Shown here: positions 402 to 62,956 of the stretch, piece after piece
Numbering within the stretch: the first letter of the stretch is position 1
Layout: every line of letters starts with the position of its first letter
From: a virus
Direction: 5' to 3' (one strand)
IMG/VR virus record: IMGVR_UViG_3300042922_000152
Location: 3,831-67,830 of that record
DNA: 64,000 nucleotides
Notes under the pieces: generated by a model
Told to the model about the DNA's origin: nothing
The model's input: the letters and a program-made list of their open reading frames with translations, nothing else
The model's database searches: none
Made by a program: the position numbers and the translations under genes

Positions 402-1330
402 GCATGGACAAACGCCTTCAGCGCATATTCAAAGCCATTGAGCGAATCACGAAGATAGAGGACGAGGAGCTTGCAGACCTCATTAAAGAGTTTCCTGAAG
501 CTGACGCGCTTATACAGTATATTGCTGCCTACGAGAAAGACTTGGCAAAGCTGCTGAAGGAAGAGAAGAAGTTCTTCATTCAGGCTGTACAGCAGTACCT
601 TGCAGGCGCTCAGACAGGCAACATTCTTGTACAGGCTATGCTTGACCTCGTTGTCACTGACATGCTTGCTGATGATCCCTTTGACGCAAAGCTTGCGGCA
701 CAATCGAAGGCTTTTTTGACAAAGGCTTGTCAAGAACTCTGCACGAAGATCATGGACATTATCGACAAGGACGTACCTTTTCAAATACTCTCGCCGCGCA
801 CAACTCAATGGATTGAGTCATGGTCTGAAGACCTTGGCAAGCTCATGAAGCTGACGAGTCACGAGGCTGTAGAGAACGTCTTGAAGAAAGGCATTGCTGA
901 AGGCCTCGGCATAGACAAGATTGTGGATGAAATGAAAGACTTGCCAGAGTTTTCACGCAGGAGAGCAAGAGCGACTGCAATCACTGAAGTCTTGACAGCA
1001 TCCTCAGTATCACAGAATGAGGCCTACGCTCAATCGCCTGCTGTCGAAGGCAAGACCTGGTTGCACTCAGGCAGCAAGAAGAATAAGCCGCGAGAGCATC
1101 ATGTCAAGCTGCACGATGTTACCATAGGCAAAAATGAAAAGTTTCTCATAGAAGGCCCGAAAGGCAGCTTTCAGGCTTCATTCCCGCGAGATACTGCGCT
1201 TCCTGCTTCTGAACGAGTCTTTTGTCATTGTGCATTAGCTCCTTCAGTGAATGAAAGTATACTCGGCCTGAGCAAGCAGGAAAAAGAAAGCATCAGGGAG
1301 CAGGTGTTAAGGGAGCTGGGAAAGGTGTGA
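398..1330 (+). CDS. Minor head / head morphogenesis protein (Mu gpF / SPP1 gp7-like)
   Basis: RARATAITE, KTW, REHH, ERVFCHC motifs; position after portal. Confidence 0.85.
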   Translation: MSMDKRLQRIFKAIERITKIEDEELADLIKEFPEADALIQYIAAYEKDLAKLLKEEKKFFIQAVQQYLAGAQTGNILVQAMLDLVVTDMLADDPFDAKLAAQSKAFLTKACQELCTKIMDIIDKDVPFQILSPRTTQWIESWSEDLGKLMKLTSHEAVENVLKKGIAEGLGIDKIVDEMKDLPEFSRRRARATAITEVLTASSVSQNEAYAQSPAVEGKTWLHSGSKKNKPREHHVKLHDVTIGKNEKFLIEGPKGSFQASFPRDTALPASERVFCHCALAPSVNESILGLSKQEKESIREQVLRELGKV

Positions 1331-1334
1331 CACT

Positions 1335-1535
1335 ATGGAATGGGATACGGAGGGAAAAACGGTGGACTCTTGTGCTGCATGTGAGTGGGACCATGAAAAC
1401 GTTGCGTTTTTTAGCGCCAATCCTGGTCTTTACTTCAAATGTCCTCTTACGCTTGCGACTGTACGAATCGCACCTAATGGTTCGTATCGTGTCGTAAAAG
1501 CGAAAAACGTGGACATTCTCTTTGGAAGGGGGTGA
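1335..1535 (+). CDS. Small hypothetical protein (CxxC)
   Basis: 66-aa ORF with SD filling the gap between head genes. Confidence 0.5.
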   Translation: MEWDTEGKTVDSCAACEWDHENVAFFSANPGLYFKCPLTLATVRIAPNGSYRVVKAKNVDILFGRG

Positions 1536-1539
1536 GAAT

Positions 1540-2637
1540 ATGCCAAGAGAACTGAAAAACGCACAAATAACCCATGTATCCTACGTAGACAAGGCAGCCA
1601 ATAAACGTCAATTCTTCCTGATGAAGGCAGAAGGTGACAAGCAGCCGAACTTTACGCGGGACGTCAAGATTCTCACCAAGGCTGACGACGAGCAAATGTT
1701 GGTCTATGGTGTTGTATATGAGCCTGGTGTTGAAGATGCCCACGACGACTTCATGACTGCTGCTGAGATTGAGAAAGCTGCTCACGGCTTCATGAAGGAT
1801 GCTCAGAACATCGACACTCAGCACAACTTTAAGGATGGCGCAGGCGAAGTGGTTGAAAGCTACATTGCCCCGCAAGATTTCAAAGTTGGTGAGCAGGTCA
1901 TTACAAAAGGCTCGTGGGTACTCGTCACGAAGGCGACTCCTGAAATCTGGGACGCCATTCAGAAGGGCGAGTTCACAGGCTACAGTATGGCAGGCGTTGC
2001 AGAGGTAGAGCAGAAGGACAGCGTAGAGAAGAATTTCTTCAAGCTGGTCAAGGACTTCTTCACCAAAGGCGAAGTAACTGACAAGTTCAACTCCGGCAAA
2101 GCGCAGCGCGACTTTCGTGCCGCATTTTATTTGTTTGAAGACGTGTATTACCAGTGTGCGTACAACAGCGATTCAAACGTACCTGACTATCAGCGCTTAT
2201 CTGATGCAGCTAAGGACTTGGGCGAGCTTCTGCTTGCACTTGCTGCTGAAGGCTCAACCGTTTGGAAATCGCTTGAACCTATCGACAAGGAGAGTGACAT
2301 TGTAATGATGAAGAAAGAGGAACTGCAACAGCTTATGAAAGAAGCGCTTGAGCCTGTCGTAACGCGCTTGGACAGCCTTGAGAAGGCACAGCCTGAAGCA
2401 CCTGCTGCCGAGCCTGTAGCGAAGTCGGAAGAAGGCGAAGGCGCGAAGCCTGAAGGCGAGTCTGCTGAAGACATCAAGAAGGCCTTCGCTGACATCGTAA
2501 AGGAAGCCCTTGCTCCTATCAGCGCTCGTCTGGATGTCGTCGAAAAGAATCGCGGTATTAGCAAGGCCGCTGACGCTGACGACAAGAAGCCTGCCGAAAC
2601 TGAAGTTCAAAAATCCATCTGGGCAGGCCTGCTGTAA
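1540..2637 (+). CDS. xkdF: XkdF-like prohead protease / scaffold
   Basis: MPRELKNAQITHVSYVDKAANKRQF, VYGVVYEP, GEFTGYSMAG; acidic scaffold-like C-terminus; SD-supported ATG at 1540. Confidence 0.85.
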   Translation: MPRELKNAQITHVSYVDKAANKRQFFLMKAEGDKQPNFTRDVKILTKADDEQMLVYGVVYEPGVEDAHDDFMTAAEIEKAAHGFMKDAQNIDTQHNFKDGAGEVVESYIAPQDFKVGEQVITKGSWVLVTKATPEIWDAIQKGEFTGYSMAGVAEVEQKDSVEKNFFKLVKDFFTKGEVTDKFNSGKAQRDFRAAFYLFEDVYYQCAYNSDSNVPDYQRLSDAAKDLGELLLALAAEGSTVWKSLEPIDKESDIVMMKKEELQQLMKEALEPVVTRLDSLEKAQPEAPAAEPVAKSEEGEGAKPEGESAEDIKKAFADIVKEALAPISARLDVVEKNRGISKAADADDKKPAETEVQKSIWAGLL

Positions 2638-2679
2638 TATCAGCAGCTTTGCACCTATTAAAAGGAGGACTTACACATA

Positions 2680-8076: not shown

Positions 8077-8246
8077 TAAAGGAAGGTGGCGAAGCATTTT
8101 GCTTGCACCTTGTATATCAGCGCCACCACCTTCCTCCACATGAAGTATACAACCTTCCAAAGAAACAAAAGAATTTCATGTATGCCTCTGACCTGCTCGC
8201 ACTTGAGGAGGAAAAGGCCGAAGCTGATAGAATGAAACGAAAGTAG
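8067..8246 (+). CDS. -1 frameshift extension of tail assembly chaperone
   Basis: Slippery A AAA AAC before the stop; -1 frame reads LIKEGGEAFCLHL...FMYASDLLALEEE to TAG at 8246 with no own start. Confidence 0.75.
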   Translation, partial: KKLIKEGGEAFCLHLVYQRHHLPPHEVYNLPKKQKNFMYASDLLALEEEKAEADRMKRK

Positions 8247-8254: not shown

Positions 8255-10879
8255 ATGGCGGGCAAACAATACAGGCTGACAGCGGTCTTGTCCTTGCGTA
8301 ATAAGCTTTCAGGTCAATTGTCCAAGGTTAAATCTGCTACCTCTAAGGTGGCGAAGACCGTGAGCAAAGACATGAGCGCTATATCCCGCGCTGTATCGAC
8401 AGGCGCGAAGCGAGTCAAGACTGTATCTGGTAGACTGTTTCAGCCTATCTCAGGCGCAGCGACTCAAGCGACTATTGCAGTCAAAGGCCTTGTGTCAGCC
8501 GTGAAGAAGGTTCGCGGCATTTCTGCTCCAACAACTCGTCCGGCTACAGCAGCGCCTCCACAATCTAATGCAGTTTACTCAGGAGGACGCTGGCGTAATC
8601 CTAATACAGGACGCTTCGTAGCTGGTGCAAACGCTGCGACAAACGCCGCGATTCGCGCGACGACAGCAACAGGAAAAACATCCACCTCCCTGAACAAGCT
8701 GACACAGAGCAACGCGCGCGCAGGTTCGAGCTTCATGTCTATGACAAAGGGTATCGTAGGCATGACTGCTGCCTTCGGCGTACTTACAGCAGCAGCGTCC
8801 CCCTTCCTGAAGGTGGTTCAAGGCATTAAAGATGCGTTCAAATTCGAAATGAACCAAGCGACGATAACAGCAATGTTCAAGGGCGACACGAAGCAAGCCG
8901 ACGCATACATGAACATGCTCAGTAAACGAGCGCTTGACTCACCACTGTTTCAAGAACAAGACTATTTTCAGTATTCGAAATCGTTCGTCGGTATGTCTAA
9001 GGACATAAACCAACTGAGCGCCATGTGGGGAATCGCTGAAAGACTTGCTGCGGCTGACCCTGTACAAGGTCTTGAAGGTGCGGTATTCGCTATGCGCGAA
9101 ATGTTCTCCGGTGACGCTGTTTCGATGGTTGAACGTTTTGAAATGCCGAGAGCAAAAATGAACGAAATCAAGAAACTCGACATCAATGGGCAGATTAACG
9201 CTCTTGACAAACAACTGTCAGAAATGGGTTTCGGTGCCGACTTCCTCGACAAGATTTCTGATACCGGAACAGCTTACAAGAATCAAATTCAAGAGAAATT
9301 CCAAAAGGCGTTCAAGAACATCGGTACAGGCGCGCTTGAGGAAATGAAACCTCGTATGAAGGCCTTCAACGAATCGCTTGATACAGGAGGCCTTGAGCAG
9401 TTTACGAAGATTGGCACGAAGGTCATGAAGACTTTCTTCAGCTACACGTTCAGAGGCTTTGACATGTTCGTGAACAAGGTAGCGAAGCCTTTCGTCAAGT
9501 GGTTCAAGGAAATGAGCGCTTGGACTTATCCTCTTGCGAAAGGAATTGGCGTTGCAATCGCAGCCTTTGCAGCTTTCAGCGCTGTGACGATGGTTATTCG
9601 CGCTGTAGGCGCTGCTATATCGTTCCTAACCTCTCCTATCGGTCTTGTCCTCGTAGCTATAGCGCTGCTGTATGCTGCGTGGGATGGAAACTGGTGGGGA
9701 TTCCGTGATACGGTAATTAAGGTGTGGAACTACATCTTCCCGTATCTGACGAAGGCGTGGAACTGGATTGTCAACCTGTTCAAGACGAGTGGGCCTAAAA
9801 TACAGTCAACAGTCATGTCTATGATGTCAAAGGTCAAGCAGATTTTCCTAACCTACTGGCCTATGGTAGTAAACATTGCCAAACAGGTTTGGGGAGTCCT
9901 TGTTAACATTTACAGGACGTTCGCGCCGATTATCGTGCAGGTTGTGCAGTATGCGTGGGGCTTGATTCAGCGGATCATTGCTTTTGTAATGCCCTTCATT
10001 GTCGGGCTAATTCAAAAATATGTACCGATGATTGTCAAAGCCTTTCAAACTGTCTACAACTATATTATGATGATCATGCCGAAGGTGCTTGAGGTCATAA
10101 CGCGCATTTGGAACACAATCTGGCCTATTGTCAAGTTTGCTGTTGACGTGATATGGGAAGTTGTTAAGGTGGCGTTTACGGCAATTTGGGGAATTATCGA
10201 ATGGGTAATGAACCTCATTGTAAACGTCATTCGCGTTGCTTGGGATGTCGTCTCTGGCGTGTTCAACTTCTGGGTATCGCTGCTTTCAGGTGACGTTGTA
10301 GGAGCCTTTACAGGCCTGTGGGATACCGTTCAAAAGGTGTTCGGCAAGAACGGCATTACCAAAATTTTCACAGACGCTATAGGCGGCGCTTGGGATGTTG
10401 GCAAGAACCTCGCAGGTGCGATTCGAGACGGATTCACAAACGTGTTTACGAGCTTCATTGATAATGTCAAGGGCTTGTGGGATGGGCTTACAGGCTGGTT
10501 TAAAAAGGGTGACAAGAAGATTTCTCCGCAGCTTGAAATTCCTTCTGAGGCAGAGCGCGCAGCATTTATTCCTGGAGGCTACAGCGCTGCAAGAGGCTCC
10601 TTTGGGCCTGCCCCGAAAACACCTGCCTCTATTCCTTACAAGTCGCATTCAGGTGGCCTTGATTATGTGCCTTACGATGGCTACAAGGCAAACCTGCATA
10701 AAGGCGAGCGCGTGTTAACCAAGGAAGAAAACAAAGAGCAGAGCAGCGCGCAGCGTCCTATCATCGTCAACATTCCCAAGCTTGCTGATACTATTAATGC
10801 AAGTGACCCGAAGGACGTTGATAAGATGATGGGTATATTCGCTCGCAAACTGAATGAGTTAGGAGGCGCGCCCGCATGA
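8255..10879 (+). CDS. Tail tape measure protein
   Basis: 874 aa, Trp-periodic amphipathic repeats, C-terminal [22 protein letters not shown]. Confidence 0.9.
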
Positions 10880-14425: not shown

Positions 14426-14812
14426 ATGTCTCAATTTTCTGATTACCTTGAAAATGCGCTTATCAATGCTACGCTGCGCGGTGTAAATTTCACAGCGCCT
14501 ACCGCTGTATACCTCGCGCTGTTCACCTTGAATCCCGGCGACACTGGCGCTGGTACTGAAGTCTCCGGTGGAGGCTATGCTCGTAGACCTATTACCTTTA
14601 CTGCTCCTTCGAACGGCGTAACGAGCAACAGCGCTGAGGTACTGTTCAATGCAGCCACAGCTAACTGGGGTACTATTACACACATCGGAATTTACGATGC
14701 TACTACAGGCGGAAACCTCCTGTATTACTCGCCTATCTCTAATGCGAAGACGATTAATGCGGATGATCAATTGAAGGTATCGACGGGGGATATTATCGTC
14801 TCGCTGGCATAA
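14426..14812 (+). CDS. Small tail fibre/baseplate-associated structural protein
   Basis: SDYLENALIN, YLALFT, EVSGGGYAR, WGTITHIGIYDA. Confidence 0.7.
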   Translation: MSQFSDYLENALINATLRGVNFTAPTAVYLALFTLNPGDTGAGTEVSGGGYARRPITFTAPSNGVTSNSAEVLFNAATANWGTITHIGIYDATTGGNLLYYSPISNAKTINADDQLKVSTGDIIVSLA

Positions 14813-14849
14813 AATCTTGACATAGGCCTGTCAAAAGTGAGGTGAAATC

Positions 14850-20791: not shown

Positions 20792-21586
20792 ATGCTAATC
20801 GCTCTTGATAATGGTCACGGTGCAAACACTCCCGGCAAGCGCACTCCGAAATTCGAGGATGGAACCTTCATGCACGAATGGGAGTTTAACAGGCGCGTTG
20901 TGCAGATTCTCGCTGTCGAGCTTCAGCGCTGCGGCTTCAGCGTTCTTGAAGTGTCACCTACTGACGAGGACACTGACCTAATGGTTAGAACAGCGCGCGC
21001 GAATACTGCAAAGGCCGACTTGTTCCTTTCAGTTCATGCGAATGCACTCACAGGCTCATGGGGCAATGCGCGAGGCATTGAAACGCTGACAGCAGGTGTA
21101 GGCGAATCAGTTCGCGTTGGCGCAATCTTACAGCGTCACCTTGTAGCAGATACAGGCCTTTATGATAGAGGCTTGAAAGATGGCACATGGTTAGGCGTTG
21201 TGAAGTATACGAGAATGCCTGCTGTTCTTGTTGAGTGTGGATTCATGGATAACCTGAATGAGGCGCGCTTGCTCGTGACTGAGGAATACAGGCGCGTGTG
21301 CGCTGTCGCGTTGGCTAAAGGAGTATGCGAGGCCTACAGCGTTCAGTATATAGAGGAGGATGACGAAGAAATGAAGGAACAACTTGCGGCACTTGAAAAA
21401 CAGGTGCAAGAACTGACAGCTACTTGTCAAGAATTGAAGGCGAATGCCTCAATGAAGGCACCTTTGTGGTCTGCTGAAGCTGTCGCTGCTGCTGTGCGTA
21501 ATGGGCTTATTGATACGCCTGACGGTGGCAGCTATGACTTCTATCGCATTCTGACAGTAATGTATCGTCAAAAACTGTTCAAATAA
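20792..21586 (+). CDS. Endolysin, N-acetylmuramoyl-L-alanine amidase (Amidase_3)
   Basis: LDNGHG, E, SVHANA, PAVLVECGFMDN. Confidence 0.95.
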   Translation: MLIALDNGHGANTPGKRTPKFEDGTFMHEWEFNRRVVQILAVELQRCGFSVLEVSPTDEDTDLMVRTARANTAKADLFLSVHANALTGSWGNARGIETLTAGVGESVRVGAILQRHLVADTGLYDRGLKDGTWLGVVKYTRMPAVLVECGFMDNLNEARLLVTEEYRRVCAVALAKGVCEAYSVQYIEEDDEEMKEQLAALEKQVQELTATCQELKANASMKAPLWSAEAVAAAVRNGLIDTPDGGSYDFYRILTVMYRQKLFK

Positions 21587-21659: not shown

Positions 21660-21690
21660 GACCTCTGCTAACGCAGGGGTCTTTTTTATT
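21660..21690 (+). terminator. Intrinsic terminator after endolysin
   Basis: GACCTCTGC-TAAC-GCAGGGGTC + TTTTTT. Confidence 0.85.
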
Positions 21691-21707
21691 TTGTTCGAAA
21701 AATCTTC

Positions 21708-21737: not shown

Positions 21738-21803
21738 CAAGCAAAGGTACTTTTGAAGTAGCGACAACATGAAAAGTACCTAACATTTGAGGAGGTAGCG
21801 AGT

Positions 21804-23879: not shown

Positions 23880-26173
23880 ATTGGCTACTGAACAAGGAGT
23901 ATGTACGCCTGAAGCTGATTCCTGATAGCTCTGTCAGGAACTGGCGAGCAGAAGACCTTGCCAAGACGATTGCAGAACAGTTTAAGCTTCCTATAGAACG
24001 CATCGTGTCTGAAGGCTTGCGTATCAAAGGTTATAAAGTGCAGGAGCGCGCAGGCTTTGAAATCGCCTTTCAAGATGGTTCTGTAACATTTTATCTTACA
24101 GTTCCCAAGCACATAGCGCCTCTCGTTGTCAGGCGCTTGCAGTCTATTTGGGATAGAGCGACATTCGAGGAGACGACATTCGCAAAGCCTTTTGACAGCA
24201 ATATGTCAACAGTTTACGAGCTTGTGTACAAGAAACACGACATGTACTCACTACACACGGACGCAAAGAATAATCTTCCTCTTATCTCGCTGATTGAGTC
24301 AGGCAGGTTACTTGGTGAAGGCGAGCGCGCTTCTGTGTTCGCCTACCTTGAGCCTATCAATCAAATTAGTTGGAACTACAAAATGCAGCAAGCTTGGGAG
24401 ATATTGCGCAGCGGCAAGCTGCCTATGCGCGCACAGCTTACTGTGAGGGTTGTTATTTACATGATAGTATCGGGCCTTGCTTCAATCCTGCAAGAGATTA
24501 TGGCAGCAATGTCTGATGTCCTGTCTTCAGGACGTGGCAACAATATCTACCTCAATAAGCCTGCAATAGCTCCAGAGGCCTCGCAGTATGCTATTGATAG
24601 ACTGTCGGAGTCAACGAAGCGCAAGGCAGCAAAGGCAGGCATGAAGGCGTATGTCTGGACAATGGCGCAAAGTAAGAACGAATCACGCGCCGACCTCGTT
24701 GCGCGCTCACTTGCTGTGAGCTATTCAGACCTCGCAGAGGACAACGAGCTTGAACCTCGAAGGCTTGGCAAAAAGCAGCGCGCAGAGGTTTTGCGTGTCG
24801 TCGCCTCCTCACAACCTCCTAAGATTAACTTGCGGTATAACCTCATGAGCAGCGCAGAGGCGGGCAAGCTTCTTCAGCTTCCCGGCCTCGAATTGCAGGA
24901 GGCATTCAAGGAGATTGAGCGCGTAGAGCAGGCACAGCTTGAAGTGGCTAACAAACGTTTCCTTGATCCGACAGGTATCCTTATAGGTGACGTTACCTTT
25001 AAAGGCAAGACGCAAAAGGTCTATCAGCCTATACATGATGACGACGAGCTTTGCCTGCCTCATGTAGGCGTTGGAGGCATGGGTCAAGGTAAAACGAAAG
25101 GCCTCCTATCTAACTACGCTGTAGAGGCGACGAGAGCAGGCTTTGCAGCTTTGACGATAGACGCGGCAAAAGGCGAGATATTCGAACAGGTTTCTGCTGT
25201 GCTGCCTCCTGAGCAAGTCAATCACATAGACCTTGGCAAAACAGTGTTCGCGCTCGACTTCTGCGAGGCCATGCACGATGACAGGGCGCGCTCACGCCTT
25301 GCAAATATTGTGGTATACTTCTTCGATGTTGCAGAGGAGACAACAGGACAGACAGAACGCTTTCTGCGCGCTTGTGTACTTGCTATGCAGCACGGAAGGC
25401 TGTCAGAGGTCTTGAGCATCCTGAACATGAACAAAGACAACAAGGAGGCAGAGAAGCGCCTTGACGAGGCTATACAGCGCCTCATAGACCGAGACGATGA
25501 ATTTAACCTCGCCACGCTGAAAGAGTTCAAAAGCTATGATACAGGAATGAGGCGCAAGATACTGTCGCCTATCCTGAACAGGATGAACGACATACTTGGT
25601 GACGAGCATCTTGCCAAATGCATGAAAGCTGACAACTCACTTGATTTTGTTGAAATCATGAGCAAGCGAAATCTGTGTACGGTCATAGACGTGCGCGCGG
25701 ATGATCTTGACAAAGTAGCGGTGAACGTCATTGTCAGCCTGCTATCATTGAAGATTGATCTTGCCATGAGGATGCGTGAGAAGATCAAAGGCCCAGAGGC
25801 CTCGTTTCCTTACTTCGCGCTCATTGACGAACCACATCAATACATGAAGTCAACAAAGATATGGGAGGACGCTGTTGTGGAATCAAGGAAGTGGCGTGTG
25901 TGCTACTTCTGGACATTTCACTATTTTGACCAACTGCCTGCGAAGCTTCAAAAAGCAATCAAGAACGCGCTGCCTCATTATCACCTTTATCCTACATCAA
26001 CCGAAACCTTCAAAAGCCTCCTTCAGGAAATACGTCCTTTTGTTCTGGACGATGCGCTAAAACTAAAACGATGGCATGCAATCAACGTTATCAGGTCAGG
26101 AGGCGAAAACGCTACGCCGTTCATAGCGCACATGGCTGCACCCCCAAAAGACCGCTTAAAATCAGGAGCTTAA
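23876..26173 (+). CDS. FtsK/HerA-superfamily ATPase, VirD4/TraG coupling-protein-like
   Basis: Walker A GGMGQGKT, TIDAAKGE, Walker B ALIDEPHQ, ESRKWR; TTG start overlapping upstream stop. Confidence 0.8.
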   Translation: MNWLLNKEYVRLKLIPDSSVRNWRAEDLAKTIAEQFKLPIERIVSEGLRIKGYKVQERAGFEIAFQDGSVTFYLTVPKHIAPLVVRRLQSIWDRATFEETTFAKPFDSNMSTVYELVYKKHDMYSLHTDAKNNLPLISLIESGRLLGEGERASVFAYLEPINQISWNYKMQQAWEILRSGKLPMRAQLTVRVVIYMIVSGLASILQEIMAAMSDVLSSGRGNNIYLNKPAIAPEASQYAIDRLSESTKRKAAKAGMKAYVWTMAQSKNESRADLVARSLAVSYSDLAEDNELEPRRLGKKQRAEVLRVVASSQPPKINLRYNLMSSAEAGKLLQLPGLELQEAFKEIERVEQAQLEVANKRFLDPTGILIGDVTFKGKTQKVYQPIHDDDELCLPHVGVGGMGQGKTKGLLSNYAVEATRAGFAALTIDAAKGEIFEQVSAVLPPEQVNHIDLGKTVFALDFCEAMHDDRARSRLANIVVYFFDVAEETTGQTERFLRACVLAMQHGRLSEVLSILNMNKDNKEAEKRLDEAIQRLIDRDDEFNLATLKEFKSYDTGMRRKILSPILNRMNDILGDEHLAKCMKADNSLDFVEIMSKRNLCTVIDVRADDLDKVAVNVIVSLLSLKIDLAMRMREKIKGPEASFPYFALIDEPHQYMKSTKIWEDAVVESRKWRVCYFWTFHYFDQLPAKLQKAIKNALPHYHLYPTSTETFKSLLQEIRPFVLDDALKLKRWHAINVIRSGGENATPFIAHMAAPPKDRLKSGA

Positions 26174-31091: not shown

Positions 31092-32198
31092 ATGATATTC
31101 AGGCTTTTGAAGTCAGGCGCAACGCTCACAGTGTATAAAGAGCTTGCGAGAGCTATCGGGTTAGAGGCTTCGCTGATGTACTCCGAACTGCTGAAAAGGT
31201 GGGAGCGCTTTGCAGAGCTTGACCAGCTAACTGAAGATGGTTATTTCTATAATACCATTGAGGACATGCAGCGCGAAACGTTCCTTTCAGCACATCAGCA
31301 GCGCGCAGCCATTAAGCTTTTGACAGAACTTAATCTTATCCAAACTACTGTTAAAGGCCTTCCTGCCAAAAGATTTTTCCTCGTAAATCCTGACAGCAGC
31401 GTCATTGAGTCCATACTGAAAAAAGAGTGTGAAGAACAGCCTGCGCAGCAAGTTCAGGAGTCGCAAAAACAAGTTGTTAAAAATTTAATAACTGATAGTG
31501 ACGCGGGTTCGCAGCCTCCTGAAGGTGCAAACCTTACATACTCGCGTCAGTTGTTAAAAATTCAACAACAAGAAGTTAAAATTTTAACTCAATATAAACA
31601 TAAAAACAAAGATCAAGAACCAAAAGAACAAAACCTAAAAGAAAGTTCAAAAGATACTTCTCCTTCGGAGAAGGCGCAAGCGCCAAGCATTCAAAAGCAA
31701 AAGCCTCTCTTCGCTTTACCTGAAGTACCTCTGTCAGTACCTCACTCTGGCAAAAACCTCACACAAGCGCAGCAGTCTGAAAACAAGATTTTTCAGGCAA
31801 GGCACACAGGCGACTGGGATAAAGTAACTAACCAAGACTTTGCGCATTACTACGTTCAGGCTCATAACAAGATCATGAGCAAGCCTGTGACCTTCGACAG
31901 ATATACCTCGACAACGATCATCAGGGACAACCTGATAGGCGCTTTTGACATCGACAAGTCAAAAGTCTGTGAGTACATTGACCAACTGCTGCTGACATAT
32001 AGCAAGTCGCCTGACAAATATGATTGGCTCAGCTTCAACATGATTCAGAAAGCAAGTCCCCTCATGAAAGACCTCATGAGACAAGTTTGCAGCTTGTTAG
32101 AGCCTGTGGAGCGAACGATTGCTTATAACGACTTCACAGATGTTGCCGACGAAGTAGAGAAGCTAAAGAAGCTGTCTACAGACGAACTCATTTTCTAA
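31092..32198 (+). CDS. Replication initiator (N-terminal wHTH)
   Basis: YKELARAIGL, DGYFYNTIED..ETFLS..QQR..IK.L; internal AT-rich repeats; upstream of loader and helicase. Confidence 0.8.
   Translation: MIFRLLKSGATLTVYKELARAIGLEASLMYSELLKRWERFAELDQLTEDGYFYNTIEDMQRETFLSAHQQRAAIKLLTELNLIQTTVKGLPAKRFFLVNPDSSVIESILKKECEEQPAQQVQESQKQVVKNLITDSDAGSQPPEGANLTYSRQLLKIQQQEVKILTQYKHKNKDQEPKEQNLKESSKDTSPSEKAQAPSIQKQKPLFALPEVPLSVPHSGKNLTQAQQSENKIFQARHTGDWDKVTNQDFAHYYVQAHNKIMSKPVTFDRYTSTTIIRDNLIGAFDIDKSKVCEYIDQLLLTYSKSPDKYDWLSFNMIQKASPLMKDLMRQVCSLLEPVERTIAYNDFTDVADEVEKLKKLSTDELIF
31472..31589. repeat. Iteron-like repeats, probable replication origin
   Basis: AGTTGTTAAAAATT twice plus AGTTAAAATTTTAACT inside initiator gene. 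Confidence 0.6.
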
Positions 32199-37248: not shown

Positions 37249-39630
37249 ATGGCTAAGAAGCAACAAAGTATATTTGGTGCAATGCAGCGCGACGACAAGA
37301 CCAAGGAACTCAACAAGGCTATACTCGAACGCGCGCAGCAATCGCAGAAGCAGGCACGAACAATGTCAGCGCGCGTTACTGTAGACCCCAAGGAAGGCAA
37401 GCGCGCTGCGCTCATTGCTAAGGTGCAGGCTGCTGTGGAAGTAGCGAAGCAGAAGCTTATACCTGATGACACCTATGAAATCATTAGAGACGAAGCGCGA
37501 CTTGTAGAATACGTGGATACTTTGATAGGTATCGTCACTGTCAATCCTGATGAAATTATTGGCATTGACTTCGAGGCGACGAGCCTTGATCCGATAACAG
37601 GAACGCTCGTAGGCACAGCACTTTACATTCAGGGCACGAAGGAAGTCTATATACCACATACTCACACAGACTACTTTGACAAGCTGTTGCCAAATCAGAT
37701 TTCCTTTGAAGTCATGGCGCGTGAGCTTATGCGTCTTATCGCTGCAAATGCCAAGTTCGTCTATCATAATGCTAAGTTTGATATGCGATATGCTAAGAAC
37801 GCTATGGGCGTTCTTATACCTGTGCATTGGGATACTTCGCTTGGCTCAAACTTCCTGAATGAGTATGAGCCTCACGGCCTCAAGCCTTTGTGGGACAAAT
37901 ATGTAAGCAAGGACAGCGAAAAGAAATCCGAGCAGTTTTCTGACCTGTTTGACGGCATACCTTTTAACTATGTTCCTATCGAACTTGGCGCAATCTATGC
38001 AGCGAAAGACCCGCGCAAGACTGTTGAACTATGTTACTTCCAAAAGCAGTACCTAACTGAGACTGCGGAGAAGTGCATAAAGGCTGACCTTGTTGACACA
38101 GCGCGTCTACATTGTAACTGGGAAACGCCACTAATTCCTGTTCTCAGAGACATGGAAGAACGAGGCGTTGGACTTGACAAAGACATGTCAAAAGAACTGT
38201 CCGTCAAGTATAATAGATTGAAGGTAGAGGCTGAAGCAAAATGTCAAGCGTACCTGAAGAAGCTTGATTATCGTAAGCTGAACGCAGAGCAGCGCGGCAA
38301 GCTCGGCAATCCTATAAATTTGAACAGTCCCATTCAGCTTCAGATTGTACTATATGACGTTATGGAGCTACCTTCTGTAGAAAGGAAGTCTCCAAGAGGT
38401 ACGGGTGAGAAGGTTCTTGAAAAGCTCAAGGAGCGCCTTCAGAATGAGAAGAATACAAAGGATGGCGATAAGAAAAAGCATGTTGAATTTTTTGACTTGC
38501 TTCTTGAATATCGCGGCATAGCGAAACTCGTTTCCACATACATTGACAACCTGCCTGACCTTGTTAAGGAGAAGACAGGCAAGATTCACACCCAATACAA
38601 TCAGTATGGCGCAAGAACAGGACGATTCTCTTCAGAAGCGCCCAACCTGCAAAATATACCGTCAAAGAATAAAGAGATTCGAAAGATGTTCATTCCTTCG
38701 ATTGGCTTTGTGTTCATCGGCGGCGACTTTTCACAGCAGGAGCCTCGCGCGCTTGCTCACCTGTGCTTTGTCCTCTTTCAGGACAGGAAAATGCTTGACG
38801 CATATCTTGCAGGCAAAGACTTGTATTCATGGATGGCTGCTGAAATTTACAAAGTTTCTTACGAGGAATGTAAAGAGTTCCGGCCTGATGGCAGCACCAA
38901 TGCTGAAGGCAAGAAGCGCAGAAACTCAGTTAAGAGCATTTTGCTTGGCCTGATGTACGGGCGCTCGACTGCATCCGTAGCAGAGCAAATGGAAGTAACT
39001 GAAGCTGAAGCGCAAAAAATTGTTGACATGCTGTTTAACGAGTTTCCCGGCATTCTTCGTGTCATTCATTACTATGAAGACATGGTTCGTGAGAAGGGTT
39101 ATGTTAAGACCATATACGGGCGCAAGTGTCGTATACCTGATTTCAATCTTCCTGATTATCAATGCGTGTATGACAGCGACAGGAAGACGCCAATACAAGA
39201 GCGTGAAATAAATGATTACTATGTACGCAAGATGCGCCTTGCTACGGGTTACAAGTCAAGGCGCGCAGTCATCGAAGAGGCTAATTCGAAAGGCATATGG
39301 ATTGAGGACAACACACTTCTAATCTCAGAAGCGCAACGTCAAATACTGAACAGCGTCATTCAGGGCACAGGCGCAGACATCACGAAAATTGCTATGGTGC
39401 TTGTAGGTACGGACGAGCAATTGAAGGAATGGGGTTTCCATTTGTTGCTAACTGTGCATGACGAACTTATTGGCGAAGCTCCTGAAGCGACTGCTCGTAA
39501 GTGCGCCGAGCGTATGCGTGAACTGATGCTGAAGGCTACTGAAGGCGTTCTTACAGTACCTATGTCTGTTGACTGTGAAATTACAAGGCGCTGGTTCGGT
39601 GAGGATATCACAAATGAATTAGCTGCATAA
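37249..39630 (+). CDS. polA: Family A DNA polymerase (3'-5' exonuclease + polymerase)
   Basis: DFEAT, HNAKFD, YAAKD, TGRFSS..PNLQNIP, DFSQQEPR, K..LLGLMYG, NSVIQGTGAD, VHDE. Confidence 0.95.
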   Translation: MAKKQQSIFGAMQRDDKTKELNKAILERAQQSQKQARTMSARVTVDPKEGKRAALIAKVQAAVEVAKQKLIPDDTYEIIRDEARLVEYVDTLIGIVTVNPDEIIGIDFEATSLDPITGTLVGTALYIQGTKEVYIPHTHTDYFDKLLPNQISFEVMARELMRLIAANAKFVYHNAKFDMRYAKNAMGVLIPVHWDTSLGSNFLNEYEPHGLKPLWDKYVSKDSEKKSEQFSDLFDGIPFNYVPIELGAIYAAKDPRKTVELCYFQKQYLTETAEKCIKADLVDTARLHCNWETPLIPVLRDMEERGVGLDKDMSKELSVKYNRLKVEAEAKCQAYLKKLDYRKLNAEQRGKLGNPINLNSPIQLQIVLYDVMELPSVERKSPRGTGEKVLEKLKERLQNEKNTKDGDKKKHVEFFDLLLEYRGIAKLVSTYIDNLPDLVKEKTGKIHTQYNQYGARTGRFSSEAPNLQNIPSKNKEIRKMFIPSIGFVFIGGDFSQQEPRALAHLCFVLFQDRKMLDAYLAGKDLYSWMAAEIYKVSYEECKEFRPDGSTNAEGKKRRNSVKSILLGLMYGRSTASVAEQMEVTEAEAQKIVDMLFNEFPGILRVIHYYEDMVREKGYVKTIYGRKCRIPDFNLPDYQCVYDSDRKTPIQEREINDYYVRKMRLATGYKSRRAVIEEANSKGIWIEDNTLLISEAQRQILNSVIQGTGADITKIAMVLVGTDEQLKEWGFHLLLTVHDELIGEAPEATARKCAERMRELMLKATEGVLTVPMSVDCEITRRWFGEDITNELAA

Positions 39631-43150: not shown

Positions 43151-43610
43151 AGCTGACTCAGATGTGGTAACTCGCCTCGTTGATCAACTGGTGAACGAGT
43201 ACAGCAGAGAAATTGACAGACTCGTGTCAGAAGTCAAGGACATGCTCGTCAAGAAGGATACGCTTGACGACGAAGAAATTGAGAAATGCGTCCTGCGTTT
43301 CCCGGTTTACATGTATAGCGCAGTTAATGGCGTTGAGAATGTAGGCATTCAGGCAGAGCTTGCAAAGGCGAACAAGATGGAAGTTCTCAATCAGGCATTT
43401 GAAGCCATTGAAGGTACGATACCTGACAAGACGAAGTATGCCGAGCTTGAGAGCTTCAATGAACACCTGATGACTGTAGTGTTTGAGAAAGCCTACAGGA
43501 AGCTGAAGGCAAAAATTGAACACGCCGACAAGGTTTACTCTGCGACGAAGAAGGTCATGGAAAAGCGCATTGCTGAAATGGGAGTTCTTAGGAGGGATAG
43601 AAATGGCTAA
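43044..43610 (+). CDS. Helical protein, possible recombination mediator (UvsY-like)
   Basis: Coiled coil with GTIPDK; near recA. Confidence 0.45.
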   Translation: MTTEQEQADSQEQEHTEAASPKQDEEKLRTIRHKIKADSDVVTRLVDQLVNEYSREIDRLVSEVKDMLVKKDTLDDEEIEKCVLRFPVYMYSAVNGVENVGIQAELAKANKMEVLNQAFEAIEGTIPDKTKYAELESFNEHLMTVVFEKAYRKLKAKIEHADKVYSATKKVMEKRIAEMGVLRRDRNG

Positions 43611-51333: not shown

Positions 51334-51476
51334 TTGTTCGTATCAATGGTGAACGCATTGAAAACGTAGAGCGCTTGGAAATCGTGAATAACGAAGTTCC
51401 CACATCTGTAGCGCTTGCGTGGGTGGCTGTAGGCCTCGTAGTGCTGATTGCGTGGATTGAGAGGTTCGCGTCATGA
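51330..51476 (+). CDS. Small membrane protein (48 aa)
   Basis: GTG start overlapping stop, SD GGAGG; C-terminal TM. Confidence 0.5.
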   Translation: MIVRINGERIENVERLEIVNNEVPTSVALAWVAVGLVVLIAWIERFAS

Positions 51477-51495
51477 ACGAGAGGAGAAAAAGCCG

Positions 51496-52431
51496 ATGAA
51501 CTTCCAAACATTGAAGAAGGAACTTGATAACGGCGTCTACAGGAACCTGTATATCTTCTCAGGTGACGAGCGTGAAGTGATGCGCAAGTACATTAAGCGC
51601 ATAGCTGGTGATACTCCTATAACACGTCCCGACAGCATCAAGAGCATAGCAAAGGCGCTGCAAACGCGCTCCTTGTTTCCTTCTCGTCGCGTGTATCTGC
51701 TGGAAGATGATAAGGCAGTTCTTGACATGAATTTGTCAACTTTGCAGCACAAGGCCAACATGTGCAAGGATACCGTCATCATTATCACCTTCAGGAGTAT
51801 TGACAATCGCCTCAAGTTTTTCAAGGACGTGAAAGAGGAGCTTTGTAGCTTCGACAAGTACACGGAGCAGCAGCTTGTAGGCTTTATAGTCAAGCAGGTT
51901 CAAATGCCTGAAGAGGTAGCTTTGCAGCTTGCAAAACGTTGTGGAAATGACGTTGCGCGCATTGAGTCTGAATGTAACAAGCTGAAGCACTTCACGAGTG
52001 ATGTACCACCATTCATTGACGATGCGATTACCCTTGAAATGCTGCGCGATATTGTTGCACCTACGCTGGAAGATAGGATATTCGAAATGATTGACGCGGT
52101 GGCTACAAAGAAACTCTCAAAAGCCTTCAGCCTCTACAAGGAACTGCTGGACATGAAAGAAAGCCCCATCAAAATTGTGTCGCTTCTGTACACGAAGTTT
52201 CGTCAAATTTTCCTGCTGCAATATTACAGCGGCTTGAAAGGCGAAATCGGTCAGAACACAGGCATGAATCCTTGGCAAATTAAAATGACTCAACCGCTCG
52301 TAGGTCACTTTCAGACTGAGCGCCTGCTGAAGATCATGAAGCAGATTCAAAGCGCAGAGGTCAAAATGAAAACAGGTCAGATGGACATGTCAACTGGTAT
52401 GGATGTCCTGATGATAAACATTCTCGCATAG
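51496..52431 (+). CDS. holA: Clamp loader delta-like subunit
   Basis: LYIFSGDE, SLF, IESECNKL, IFEMIDA, KMKTG. Confidence 0.85.
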   Translation: MNFQTLKKELDNGVYRNLYIFSGDEREVMRKYIKRIAGDTPITRPDSIKSIAKALQTRSLFPSRRVYLLEDDKAVLDMNLSTLQHKANMCKDTVIIITFRSIDNRLKFFKDVKEELCSFDKYTEQQLVGFIVKQVQMPEEVALQLAKRCGNDVARIESECNKLKHFTSDVPPFIDDAITLEMLRDIVAPTLEDRIFEMIDAVATKKLSKAFSLYKELLDMKESPIKIVSLLYTKFRQIFLLQYYSGLKGEIGQNTGMNPWQIKMTQPLVGHFQTERLLKIMKQIQSAEVKMKTGQMDMSTGMDVLMINILA

Positions 52432-58850: not shown

Positions 58851-58876
58851 AAGCGCCTCAAAAAAGAGGCGCTTTT
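58851..58876 (+). terminator. Intrinsic terminator
   Basis: AAGCGCCTC-AAAAAA-GAGGCGCTT + T. Confidence 0.8.
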
Positions 58877-58890: not shown

Positions 58891-58920
58891 TTGACATGTA
58901 AGTGTCAAAAATGATATATT
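58891..58920 (+). promoter_or_regulatory. sigmaA promoter whose -35 is half of a TTGACA-N6-TGTCAA palindrome
   Basis: TTGACA-N18-TATATT with TG extension. Confidence 0.75.
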
Positions 58921-58958: not shown

Positions 58959-59141
58959 ATGACAAAAGCTTTTGAAAATATAGATGGTTTATTCGCTACA
59001 GCAAAGCAGCTAACTAATGAAATTTACGATTATGCTGAAGCCAATAACACATTAGAGTATGTAAAAGAAGCGGAGTCTACAGAAGGAATTTTGTGTAACG
59101 TGTACGCTGTAAACGGCGAGTATTACTATTCATTAGCATAA
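58959..59141 (+). CDS. Small acidic protein (60 aa)
   Basis: SD GGAGG; first gene after promoter. Confidence 0.6.
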   Translation: MTKAFENIDGLFATAKQLTNEIYDYAEANNTLEYVKEAESTEGILCNVYAVNGEYYYSLA

Positions 59142-59160
59142 CAAAAGGAGCGGATAAACA

Positions 59161-59328
59161 ATGAACCTGTACTACATCACTTTCAAACTCGGAAGCCGGA
59201 GCATTAAAGTCACTCAACGGGCAATGAACAAGCAAGCAGCGATAGTGGCAGCAAAAGGCAAGTTGACTTGGAGAGAGCGTGACCGCATCACTGACATTGA
59301 GGTCATTGAAGACAAAAACAACATATAA
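59161..59328 (+). CDS. Small hypothetical protein (55 aa)
   Basis: SD AAGGAG; MNLYYITFKLG. Confidence 0.55.
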   Translation: MNLYYITFKLGSRSIKVTQRAMNKQAAIVAAKGKLTWRERDRITDIEVIEDKNNI

Positions 59329-59417: not shown

Positions 59418-60125
59418 ATGACAACAGAAGTGATGACCTCGGACCTGCAAGTGCAAGGAACCCCTGAAGAGCAGCGCGTTTTCAACTCCGACGTGACAAT
59501 TTCAGAACTGAACAGAGCTTACAGGCTGTTCAATGAACACATCTTCAATAACTACCTCGAAGACGCTTATATCATCGTCACAAGCACAGCGAAGCAGAAG
59601 GCAAATGGTTACTTCACTGTACAGAAGGTGTGGACAGACGTTGAGAATAAGATTGAACGTCACGAAATCGGTATCGGCGCTGAGTACATGAACAGACCTT
59701 TGCTCGAAATCATGAGAACACTGTTGCATGAAATGGTTCACCTGTACTGCGAGAGCAATGAAATTCAGGATACATCCAGGCAGAATCGTTATCATAACAA
59801 GAAGTTCAAGAAGGCCTGCGAGGAAAACGGTATGTTCTATCCTGAAGGCTTCGTACCTGACGACAAGTACGGATGGTCAGCAGCGCAGCTTACACCCGAG
59901 ACTGTTGAACTCGTTAAATCCTGGGAGATCAATGAGGAGGCGTTCAAGCTGTACCGCAAGCGCTTCGACACAGCGCCTAAAGGTGACGACGAGGAAGAGA
60001 AGAAGCCGCGCGTCCTGTTCAACATCAAGCACATGTGCCCCAAGTGCTTCGCAGAGTTCAAAGCGCCTGCGCCTCTCAACGTGACATGCAACGAGTGTGA
60101 AGAGGAATATCTGGTGATGGAATGA
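59418..60125 (+). CDS. SprT-like zinc metalloprotease
   Basis: LLHEMVHL, YHNKKFK, C-terminal CxxC pairs. Confidence 0.9.
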   Translation: MTTEVMTSDLQVQGTPEEQRVFNSDVTISELNRAYRLFNEHIFNNYLEDAYIIVTSTAKQKANGYFTVQKVWTDVENKIERHEIGIGAEYMNRPLLEIMRTLLHEMVHLYCESNEIQDTSRQNRYHNKKFKKACEENGMFYPEGFVPDDKYGWSAAQLTPETVELVKSWEINEEAFKLYRKRFDTAPKGDDEEEKKPRVLFNIKHMCPKCFAEFKAPAPLNVTCNECEEEYLVME

Positions 60126-60136
60126 CAACAAAAATA

Positions 60137-60161
60137 AGGCCTCCTTCTCAGGAGGCCTTTT
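60137..60161. terminator. Bidirectional terminator
   Basis: AAGGCCTCCT/AGGAGGCCTT between convergent genes. Confidence 0.75.
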
Positions 60162-60162
60162 C

Positions 60163-60369
60163 TTATGCTTTATAAGTCCATATGCGCTCAATAGGAACCT
60201 TTAATGCGGATGAAAGTATGAAGGCTGTTTCTAACGAAGGACTCTGTACCTTATTGTTGGCTAATCTGTTGATTGTCTCTCGTGACAGTCCGGACAATTT
60301 TGCAAGTTCAATCTGATCAACGTTAAGCTCAACCATGACGAGCTTCAGTTTGCATTCGAGCATTATCAT
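60163..60369 (-). CDS. Xre/Cro-family HTH regulator
   Basis: QIELAKLSGLSRETINRL..PSLETAF.L..AL; SD on minus strand. Confidence 0.9.
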   Translation of the reverse strand: MIMLECKLKLVMVELNVDQIELAKLSGLSRETINRLANNKVQSPSLETAFILSSALKVPIERIWTYKA

Positions 60370-60915: not shown

Positions 60916-60967
60916 GGTCATCAGGAAATAATTGACGCTCTTTTGTCAAAAAAGTTATTCCTCCCTG

Positions 60968-60996
60968 TTGCATTAAAACTTATCATGTAGTATACT
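60968..60996 (+). promoter_or_regulatory. sigmaA-type promoter
   Basis: TTGCAT-N17-TATACT. Confidence 0.7.
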
Positions 60997-61639: not shown

Positions 61640-61720
61640 ATGAAATTCATCAAATGGATTAAGAGCTTCTTCCCGGCAATGACTGTTGAAAACGGCAATG
61701 TAGATTACTATAACCTGTAA
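61640..61720 (+). CDS. Possible 26-aa peptide MKFIKWIKSFFPAMTVENGNVDYYNL
   Basis: SD AGGCGGTG; fills gap before AbrB-like gene. Confidence 0.4.
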   Translation: MKFIKWIKSFFPAMTVENGNVDYYNL

Positions 61721-61739
61721 GAAGAGAGGAGCGGGCGGG

Positions 61740-62066
61740 ATGAACGTCATATCAACCGGAATTGTAAGGCGTATTGACGACTTGGGAAGGGTAGTTATTC
61801 CAAAAGACATTCGTAGGAAGATGGGGCTTCAACCCGGCGACTGCGTTGAAATGGGCCTTTCAGGTACAGCACTTATTGCTTGGAAATATGAAGCTGACGA
61901 CACAACGCCTGTGAACCTCGGTCAAACGGAAATTGGTGCAATCCTGTTTTGCCTCGCTGATTACAATGAACATGGTCCTGAAAAGGAGTGGAGCCTTGAT
62001 AAGGAGGCGCTGCTGCTCAAGCTCAAGGACGCTTTCACACGCCTGCAAGTTCCCAACTCTGATTGA
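61740..62066 (+). CDS. AbrB/SpoVT-family regulator
   Basis: TGIVRRIDDLGRVVIPKDIRR...GD.VE. Confidence 0.9.
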   Translation: MNVISTGIVRRIDDLGRVVIPKDIRRKMGLQPGDCVEMGLSGTALIAWKYEADDTTPVNLGQTEIGAILFCLADYNEHGPEKEWSLDKEALLLKLKDAFTRLQVPNSD

Positions 62067-62081
62067 AGGAGGACAGCACAC

Positions 62082-62480
62082 ATGCCGTACTGTGCTAATG
62101 CTGAATGTAAGGAGCCTTATGATAAGGTGCTGAATCGAATCTCAGGCTTAACGTACTTCGCTATTGATAACGGCGAGTGGTGCTGTGGCTATGAGTGCTA
62201 CAAAAAGGAAATGGCGAGACGCTTTCAGGTAACGCCCGCATTAGATATGAAGGTCACGCTTGATATTCTCTCTGAGAAGTTAGCGCCCATTGGTATCATG
62301 CCTCGCAAGCTCTGGCTTGAACAACGCTTTGAAGAAGTACGCAGCGCAATACAGCGCTACGAAATGTCTGCGTATCCTGTACCTGAAGAATGGATTTCAG
62401 AACTCTGCTCACTTGCAGAACAGCTTGTACATTTCAAAGAAGAGAGGATGTATGGAAATTGGAAGGCAAATGGCTCATAG
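62082..62480 (+). CDS. Hypothetical protein with Cys-rich N-terminus
   Basis: CANAEC...CCGYEC; LGIMPRKLW-type C-terminal domain. Confidence 0.6.
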   Translation: MPYCANAECKEPYDKVLNRISGLTYFAIDNGEWCCGYECYKKEMARRFQVTPALDMKVTLDILSEKLAPIGIMPRKLWLEQRFEEVRSAIQRYEMSAYPVPEEWISELCSLAEQLVHFKEERMYGNWKANGS

Positions 62481-62956
62481 GTGAAACTGAAATTCCTGCT
62501 TGGCTCATGACTGAAAAGTATGATACGCGAGAGGATGCTATTGCAGCAGGCCTCGAACGCTTCAAAGGCGACGAGTTCGATATCGGTCAGGTCATGACAT
62601 TACCTATTCGCGCTGTAGCAGACGTAGAGGCAGTTCTTGATCACATTCACGAGAATCATGTTGACGAACACGAACTTTACGCCGAGGAAGACGACATATT
62701 TAAACAGGTGACGCCTGAGCAATACAAAGACCTTGACACAAAGCTTCGTGCGGCTATCAGCGCATGGATCACCGAAAACAATATCAAGTCACCTGCCTTT
62801 CAGATCAACGGGGAGACTGTTGAAACAATTCACCCCGATAGCACCAGGTGTGTGCTGTGTAATGAGAATGAAATTGACAAAACGTTGTCAACTCCTTGGT
62901 GTACTCCTTGTTCAGACGATATAAACAAACCTTCATTCGGAAGGCACAAAACATAA
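62459..62956 (+). CDS. Hypothetical acidic protein with C-terminal zinc finger
   Basis: YDTREDAI; CVLC...CTPC; start uncertain. Confidence 0.55.
   Translation: MEGKWLIGETEIPAWLMTEKYDTREDAIAAGLERFKGDEFDIGQVMTLPIRAVADVEAVLDHIHENHVDEHELYAEEDDIFKQVTPEQYKDLDTKLRAAISAWITENNIKSPAFQINGETVETIHPDSTRCVLCNENEIDKTLSTPWCTPCSDDINKPSFGRHKT

Follow-up and report, generated by a model that had tools for sequence, protein, structure and literature searches.

What reads a palindrome that recurs along a whole phage genome, mostly inside its genes? The question is raised by the word TTGACA-N6-TGTCAA in the IMG/VR virus record IMGVR_UViG_3300042922_000152, a 67,830-bp genome of which bases 3831-67830, a stretch of 64,000 nucleotides here called the window, were analysed. 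An initial annotation of this stretch had pointed to the word and suggested a dimeric phage protein as its reader. Our results show that the word is a DNA-level selected signal and that, across phage lineages, it is linked to a gene for a SprT-like zinc metalloprotease, which we propose as its putative reader.

The palindrome is a selected DNA signal

The window contains seven exact copies of TTGACA-N6-TGTCAA and six with one mismatch, all of them exactly where the initial annotation had placed them (listed below), and the 3.8 kb of the 67.8-kb genome that the window leaves out add a further one-mismatch copy at genome position 2886, which brings the total to 14. Dinucleotide shuffles (n=100) averaged 0.02 exact matches and 0.32 matches at no more than one mismatch, and none of the 100 reached the observed counts. 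The 12 fixed bases form a perfect palindrome, and there is no conservation across copies in either the spacer or the flanks. Mismatches in six of the seven variants fall at positions 1 and 6 or at their mirror positions, and the firm core of the site is therefore TGAC-N8-GTCA. When all spaced palindromes were counted de novo, TTGACA-N6-TGTCAA stood alone, with no rival word near it, and everted and direct arrangements of the half-sites were absent save for one direct pair at a spacer of 15.

The initial annotation had proposed that the word be counted at other spacers and weighed against codon use, and the excess withstands both controls. Across spacers of 0 to 30 bp, the 6-bp spacer alone is enriched, with 7 copies against 0 for each of the others. 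A codon-aware test was needed because most single plus-strand TTGACA hexamers (60 against about 18 expected) reflect a codon effect of the form xTT-GAC-Axx; this excess of single hexamers is not part of the palindrome signal. Seven peptide positions in the plus-strand open reading frames (ORFs) are able to encode the exact word and five of them use it, where codon usage predicts 0.125, while a sixth (21413) holds a one-mismatch form. For spacers of 3, 4, 5, 7, 8 and 9 bp, the same test found 0-3 compatible peptide positions and no realised word. The word thus constrains both the codons and the local peptide. As had been noted before, ten of the 13 window copies lie within genes, all on the plus strand, and three are intergenic, with no gap beyond about 8.5 kb; the spacing is more even than chance predicts in 20,000 simulations (largest gap 8509 bp, P = 0.003; coefficient of variation, P = 0.012). 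The sites of the window are as follows.

716..733: perfect site inside a head-morphogenesis gene (398-1330), peptide L-T-K-A-C-Q
9204..9221: site with one mismatch (TGTCAG) inside an 874-residue gene of tape-measure size (8255-10879)
14817..14834: perfect site filling the 37-bp gap between the ORFs 14426-14812 and 14850-15806; it abuts a ribosome-binding site and no -10 element follows
21413..21430: site with one mismatch (CTGACA) inside the endolysin gene (20792-21586)
24192..24209: perfect site inside the 820-residue phrog_5156 gene (23711-26173)
31945..31962: site with one mismatch (AGTCAA) inside the O-like initiator gene (31092-32198), apart from the iterons of that gene (31464-31588)
37676..37693: site with one mismatch (TGCCAA) inside the DNA polymerase I gene (37249-39630)
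38174..38191: perfect site inside the DNA polymerase I gene, peptide L-D-K-D-M-S-K
43213..43230: site with one mismatch (TGTCAG) inside a 188-residue gene without assigned function (43044-43610)
51722..51739: perfect site inside the clamp-loader subunit gene (51448-52431)
58891..58908: perfect site forming the -35 hexamer and most of the spacer of promoter P58891, directly 3' of a terminator (58851-58874)
60932..60949: site with one mismatch (TTGACG), intergenic, ending 18 bp 5' of the -35 of a second host-type promoter
60968-60996: this second host-type promoter, TTGCAT-17-TATACT, recognised by eye; the centre of site 60932 lies at about -62 from its inferred start
62874..62891: perfect site near the 3' end of the 188-residue phrog_1672 gene (62390-62956), about 75 bp before a terminator at 62965

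The word is linked to a SprT-like protease gene

A scan of viral contigs with the word and two flanking A's as query returned at least 120 stretches, mostly with single matches; among the matches listed, nine had three or more sites. Five whole word-rich records, with a fractional guanine-plus-cytosine (GC) content of 0.43-0.60, carry 17, 22, 24, 19 and 23 sites (at no more than one mismatch) in 20-65 kb, against 0-1 for the reversed control. Most sites in each record fall within ORFs, and the exact word is used at 10/10, 8/8, 5/6, 4/4 and 5/6 of the compatible peptide positions, where at most 0.08 was expected. When all proteins of these records and of the studied phage were compared with each other, only a SprT-like protein and a superfamily 2 (SF2) helicase reached four of the six genomes, and the two genomes without the SprT-like protein are 56% and 80% complete. 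SF2 helicases are common in phages. A phmmer search with every ORF of the studied phage against the word-bearing contigs gave no further recurring family, with the AbrB-like protein among those covered. The helicase in question (phrog_62, window 27638-29440) occurs in three of the five word-rich records and in the protease loci L181 and L185, and may be a partner or simply a common phage gene.

The reverse search, in which an alignment of four SprT-like sequences was run against viral contigs without use of the word, returned 26 loci with a GC content of 0.43-0.74. Three or more sites (at no more than one mismatch) were found in 21 of the 26, or in 18 of 23 when the three records used to build the query are set aside, and in 21 of the 26 the top spaced palindrome was TGACA-N6-TGTCA or TTGAC-N8-GTCAA. 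Control loci fetched for other reasons (n=42, 619 kb) held four sites in total, with three or more in none. The site-positive protease loci span about 12 protein lineages. Their flanks, compared over 10 kb on each side of the protease gene in most loci, have nothing else in common, the next largest "families" being antisense ORFs of the protease gene itself. Among cultured phages, Actinoplanes phage phiAsp2 carries 22 sites, of which one stands 19 bp ahead of its SprT-like gene pas43.

The position of the sites gives a second tie to the gene. In 22 of 27 loci (the 26 and phiAsp2), a site lies 277-520 nt before the codon of the HExxH motif, that is, at or just 5' of the gene start, and three of these loci have just one or two sites altogether. 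In several loci the protease gene has another site at its end. A position at the gene start is what one commonly sees with DNA-binding proteins that regulate themselves.

The protease and its operon

In the studied phage, the protease gene belongs to the early region, downstream of the site at 58891.

58960-59141 and 59161-59328, plus strand: two small ORFs between P58891 and the protease gene, the first without a family
59418..60125, plus strand: gene for the SprT-like zinc metalloprotease (235 residues), proposed reader of the sites
60136..60159: two-way terminator hairpin that closes both the protease operon and the convergent Xre gene (60163-60369, minus strand)

The copy at 58891 had been described as a -35 hexamer, and this is borne out: P58891, which directly follows a terminator, is close to the promoter consensus, with TTGACA-18-TATATT and a TG extension. 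The small ORFs (58960-59328) are probably co-transcribed with the protease gene from it.

The protein has the motif HEMVH at residues 104-108, a third His at 126 and a C-terminal CxxC...CxxC zinc ribbon at 207-227, and it matches the Pfam SprT-like family PF10263 with 32.8 bits (cut-off 25.6, expect value (E) 6.7e-8). H104, E105, H108 and H126 are invariant in 17 sequences of protease relatives, and the four-Cys ribbon is present in at least 90% of these. The predicted structure, with a mean predicted local distance difference test (pLDDT) of 79, has a confident core and ribbon with a disordered linker between them. Its closest solved structure in Foldseek is human SPRTN (6MDX_A; E 3e-3, probability 1.00, 107 columns, root-mean-square deviation 2.3), and since the template-modelling (TM) scores against 6MDX_A are 0.35 and 0.44, the match is limited to the core. 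Two copies of the protease are predicted to pair symmetrically, with a score of 0.67 against 0.01 for the best of three controls, a mark reached by 20 of 30 solved homodimers and 1 of 23 solved monomers, although this calibration is only rough here, where an alignment of our own was used. The runs agreed in at least 75% of contacts, with a partner pLDDT of at least 79. The prediction is in keeping with a dimer that would match the palindromic site.

The protease as putative reader of the sites

Apart from the common helicase, the SprT-like gene is the only one that word-bearing unrelated phages have in common, and the protease is for that reason the most likely reader. With moderate confidence, we interpret the palindromes as docking and operator sites of the phage's own SprT-like protease. 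The 14 copies would serve as docking sites in double-stranded DNA, kept by selection in spite of their cost in codons and amino acids, and a symmetric dimer of the protease would bind each of them with one subunit per half-site. At P58891, binding would cover the -35 and the spacer and turn the protease operon off, a negative autoregulation. The remaining sites, about one per 2-8 kb and mostly in genes, would station the protein along the whole chromosome. In our working model, the DNA-anchored protease would cleave proteins that are on phage DNA or crosslinked to it, and, as a weaker possibility, the docked protease might also act as a roadblock or a regulator.

A wider form of this proposal, possible but doubtful in our judgement, is that of a sequence-addressed protease in at least about 12 lineages and several host phyla. 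A docking palindrome every 2-5 kb would there station a SPRTN-like dimer that cleaves host proteins bound to phage DNA, moving along it or crosslinked to it, among which could be defence nucleases, silencers and the host sigma factor. If this is true, phages would mark their own genomes and counter host defences in a way that forms a new class, and the copy at the protease's own gene would provide feedback control.

Several observations weigh against the protease as reader. The nearest site in the studied phage lies 836 nt before the HExxH codon, with the two small ORFs between them, which is not the usual position. One clade of protease loci (L182, L184, L185 and L187) has no zinc ribbon yet has the word, so the ribbon cannot be the sole reading head, and we know of no DNA-sequence reading by SPRTN itself. 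Five of the 26 protease loci have 0-2 sites, and seven of the eight named phages with a SprT-like relative have none (PMBT24, Mel-JY33, Attoomi, Desulfofustis phage, Samy, Dulem virus 37 and Manatee Spring phage); with the word in phiAsp2 only, the link therefore holds for part of the SprT-like family. The studied phage's protease sits on a long tree branch beside that of the site-free PMBT24, and the tree needs six label changes, a number equalled by 96 of 500 shuffles, so that a single origin is not resolved. Between protein clades the motif varies only to a small degree, which could result from shared descent. In the other direction, three word-rich contigs, all incomplete, and the complete 193-kb phage G414, with 26 fixed-spacer copies, show no such protease; the word-rich or word-bearing records without it are G413 (76% complete), G414, G415, G416 and G417.

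Some of these records hold arrangements of their own. G414 (the record behind L060), a complete jumbo phage, has 26 copies, at no more than one mismatch, of TTGACAAA-SS-TTTGTCAA, and is a different system with an overlapping word. G415 (8167-8230) and G416 (24369-24432), the records behind L065 and L137, each have three tandem copies of TTGACA(C/T)CCCC(C/T)TGTCAA at a 23-bp spacing, which look like local iteron or operator arrays and not like dispersed sites. In five named SprT-bearing phages, GTTTAAAC was counted 2, 0, 0, 0 and 0 times, without enrichment. In the phiC31-like phages Attoomi (a Streptomyces phage; L209, 19269-19811) and Samy (L211, 24861-26356), the SprT-like gene lies between the gene for a deoxynucleoside monophosphate kinase and the immunity-repressor position, the latter annotated in Samy and phiC31; the Attoomi copy has lost HExxH, and the word occurs in neither Attoomi nor Samy.

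The finding has a bearing beyond this one phage. Phages that are unrelated, and whose hosts range from AT-rich to GC-rich, have independently acquired one and the same 18-bp word in their coding sequence, and the only gene that accompanies it encodes a DNA-repair-type protease. Should the protease prove to read the word, a function would be assigned to a widespread "hypothetical" gene, SPRTN-fold proteases would be targetable by DNA sequence, and synonymous and amino-acid choices at many sites of these genomes would be explained. The cultured phiAsp2 is open to genetics.

The studied phage, its relatives and its other repeats

Nearly all genes of the phage are on the plus strand. The annotated modules include head and tail genes, the endolysin, and a ParM gene (21804-22661) followed by an 83-residue gene. 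The replication module comprises the SF2 helicase, the O-like initiator, DnaC, DnaB, primase, single-stranded DNA-binding protein, PolA, clamp and clamp loader, together with a Cas4-like nuclease, ThyX and a RecA/UvsX-like recombinase. Two sigma factors (45587 and 48416) and a DNA methyltransferase are also encoded, and the early region at 58.8-63 kb has host-type promoters. Searches of the genome for integrases of the tyrosine or serine type and for a ParB domain found neither. The full record begins and ends with exactly the same 127 bp (G000 1-127 and 67704-67830), probably because the assembly of a circular or permuted genome overlaps itself there, and not because the molecule has a physical end.

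The stretch occurs in a single DNA sequencing run, a soil metagenome that may be its source, and in no listed RNA run. Megablast of 20 kb against phages gave no match, and searches of viral and metagenome contigs with polA and the 820-residue protein found relatives at no more than 40% identity; for the latter protein, 401 sampled Bacilli genomes yielded only relatives of about 35% identity or short fragments. Relatives of the capsid are found in Enterococcus and Brevibacillus genomes, and capsid relatives of 46-74% identity have 0 exact copies of the word. The closest, the 5985-bp viral contig L005 (capsid 74% identical), has two one-mismatch sites in 6 kb, without a positional counterpart in the studied phage, and is possibly a closer relative in which the word is in use as well.

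The replication module, ParM included, is syntenic with that of Bacillus cereus phage Flasso, whose PolA is 48.6% identical. The gene order in common (window 20792-52431 against 50-88 kb of MZ357961) runs from endolysin, ParM, small gene, helicase and initiator through DnaC, DnaB, primase, PolA, clamp, Cas4, ThyX and RecA to the clamp loader, and the actin-like ParM therefore seems a stable part of the replication module. No integrase is annotated in the stretches of MZ357961 that were read. Flasso has 0 copies of the word; it was considered as an analogue and set aside, its excess of TATTA-N5-TAATA (34 copies) being its host-type promoters.

Other repeats of the window are distinct from the palindrome. 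A second element, made up of CTTAAAAA, a stretch of 10-12 nt and TTTT-n-CTATATAAC(G) in that order, has 10 copies (30089, 32207, 36071, 37195, 39959, 45515, 48361, 52651, 53713 and 56804) before genes of the replication and nucleotide-metabolism region. CTTAAAAA is usually the loop of a terminator hairpin whose stem sequence differs between copies, and the copies are probably phage-specific middle promoters set within the terminators that precede them; one of the phage's two sigma factors (45587 or 48416) may recognise them. Three to four copies of GTTAAAAATTYAAC, direct and inverted, at 31464-31588 inside the O-like initiator gene are likely a replication origin of the lambda ori-in-O type. 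The parM leader (21690-21781) has TTCGAA-N5-TTCGAA and a 15-nt inverted repeat, AGGTACTTTTGAAGT / ACATGAAAAGTACCT, both of them candidates for binding by the ParR-like protein. The early region is followed by a 29-nt inverted repeat whose arms (63247-63275 and 63442-63470) are 166 nt apart and 90% complementary.

Alternative readers

The alternative that survives best, though we consider it unlikely, is that another protein reads the word and that the SprT-like gene is merely its most conserved target; the reader would come from the host, or be a small DNA-binding protein of the phage that evolves too fast for sequence searches to link it between phages. That a gene has a site where it begins says that it is regulated, but not by which protein, and the ribbon-less protease clade retains the word. 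Unassigned DNA binders are also found near the sites, namely Xre (60163-60369), an AbrB/MazE-like protein (61740-62066), whose operon is bracketed by the sites 60932 and 62874, and a YlxM-like helix-turn-helix (HTH) protein (53067). However, an identical 12-base specificity in about 12 lineages, with GC contents of 0.43-0.69, calls for a conserved reading head, and no second shared family appeared with blastp at 1e-3 to 1e-4 or with phmmer at 0.01 in the 10 kb on each side examined in most loci. The binders that the initial annotation had put forward, which did not include the SprT-like protease, fared no better: at E <= 0.01, none of the other word-bearing contigs gave a relative of Xre 60163, the ParR-like protein 22654, the winged HTH/DUF4268 protein 26300 or the MerR-like protein 29776. 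Searches by way of the own relatives of Xre and of the AbrB-like protein found none in viral contigs. The initiator was rejected as a reader on account of its own iterons, GTTAAAAATTYAAC, inside its gene.

The host itself could supply the reader. TTGACA, the sequence of each half-site, generally serves as the -35 consensus throughout the host phyla to which GC contents of 0.43-0.69 point. Recognition by the primary sigma factor or by RNA polymerase would account for a single word in so many hosts; the palindromes would be polymerase traps or decoys, and the protease would act on the catch. The copy at 58891 is a working-looking -35, and the studied phage has two sigma factors of its own and a separate set of non-host-type promoters. 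We nevertheless regard this explanation as improbable. A -10 at the right distance is present only at 58891 and absent for the other 12 of the 13 window sites; at 38174 the second half-site, shifted by one base, pairs with TATAAT, and the remaining 11 have no -10. Two face-to-face -35 hexamers 6 bp apart could hardly hold two polymerases. Relatives without the protease (five capsid relatives and Flasso) have 0-1 copies, and there are 0 copies in two Bacilli genomes, of Enterococcus avium and Brevibacillus (4.7 and 5.4 Mb), which carry capsid relatives.

The suggestion in the initial annotation of a dimeric protein that acts as repressor and elongation roadblock stands in part: the signal is selected in the DNA and fit for a dimer, and one copy lies in a promoter where binding would repress. 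The more specific form of it, operators and roadblocks of a lysogenic repressor in the style of Cluster A mycobacteriophages, is quite improbable. Dispersed sites with one in an early promoter and a lone minus-strand Xre gene that could encode the repressor fit it, and ParM could maintain a plasmid prophage. With neither an integrase nor a ParB domain found in the genome, such a repressor is without independent support. The stoperators of Cluster A are asymmetric and oriented with transcription, according to the available part of PMC6550527, whereas the sites studied here are palindromic. Xre has no relative in the other word-bearing contigs, and Flasso shares the ParM module and does not have the word.

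A distributed centromere, or a set of genome-organising marks, for the ParM/ParR-like pair, also raised by the initial annotation, is highly improbable. ParM (21804-22661) is followed by the 83-residue gene, the sites are evenly spaced, and dispersed centromere repeats are reportedly found in prophage N15. Against this, Flasso has ParM and the small-gene module with 0 sites, and none of the other word-bearing contigs has a ParM relative. The parM leader has its own repeats, and the degenerate copy at 21712, which had been assigned a role in the parM promoter, does exist, but it has three mismatches and that role is unsupported.

Least probable of all, and close to negligible, is an RNA hairpin with a 6-bp stem and a 6-nt loop read in the transcript: most copies are transcribed, nearly all genes being on the plus strand, and a G-U pair is kept on that strand in four of the seven one-mismatch variants, but the copy at 58891 lies 5' of its promoter's start and just 3' of a terminator, six of the seven variants are simple transitions with 0 compensatory changes, the stem does not extend into the flanks, and a fixed stem with a free loop is the reverse of the usual protein-read RNA hairpin.

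Comparison with known systems

The stoperators of Cluster A mycobacteriophages resemble the sites studied here in that they are dispersed in tens of copies, few of them in promoters, and that one phage protein, a repressor of the L5 gp71 type, is thought to read them all, as stated in the available part of PMC6550527. The 14 dispersed copies of the present word, one in P58891 and one upstream of the second promoter, share this feature. The same part of PMC6550527 describes stoperators as asymmetric, oriented with transcription and read by the HTH immunity repressor of a temperate phage. Unlike them, the present word is a palindrome with 10 of 13 copies in coding sequence, in a phage where no integrase was found, and the associated protein is a SPRTN-fold protease; an Xre gene is present in the studied phage, but without a relative in the other word-bearing contigs.

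The Streptomyces phage phiC31 has conserved inverted repeats (CIRs), which in the literature of the 1990s are said to be bound by its repressor c. The likeness lies in a palindrome with many dispersed copies within one phage, and in NC_001978 we counted 15 copies of the ACTCAC/GTGAGT palindrome against 0.01 expected. Unlike the studied phage, phiC31 has 0 copies of TTGACA-N6-TGTCAA, even at two mismatches. Its repressor c has no SprT domain by hmmsearch, and its best tblastn match in the studied genome has E = 9.

Plasmid RK2 reportedly has 12 sites for its protein KorB, called OB. The available part of PMC11790492 describes a palindrome placed at many points of a replicon of about 60 kb, in promoters and far from them, with a dimeric reader that has a second activity, and in this the two systems are alike; it also describes KorB as a clamp of the ParB family that hydrolyses CTP (a CTPase), and RK2 is a plasmid and not a phage. 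The ParB N-terminal domain PF02195 is absent from the studied genome in a search that was positive in 10 of 14 control genomes.

With the DNA-dependent metalloproteases SPRTN and Wss1, the phage protein shares the fold and the catalytic motif; protease activity is tied to DNA in those enzymes, and this is the candidate function here. SPRTN is recruited by DNA structure and by the replisome, not by sequence, and to our knowledge no dispersed address word has been described for it. SprT-like genes have been reported in actinobacteriophages of Cluster AZ (10.1101/2025.05.26.655371) and Cluster K (PMC3203893) and in the mycobacteriophage pangenome (PMC12363180), and the available parts of these three papers, supplements aside, make no mention of a repeated word tied to the gene; the Cluster AZ preprint (10.1101/2025.05.26.655371), in its available part, refers to "repeat sequences (data not shown)", which could bear on the link between word and gene. 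Literature searches on the pairing of word and protease, on Flasso and on phiAsp2 found no description of the pairing, and an anti-CRISPR Aca paper that contains both hexamers concerns a different inverted repeat. Few dispersed operator networks are known in phages, all with classical repressors or ParB-type readers; stoperators, the phiC31 CIRs and KorB/OB are the nearest kinds of system to the one described here, and each of them has a different reader.

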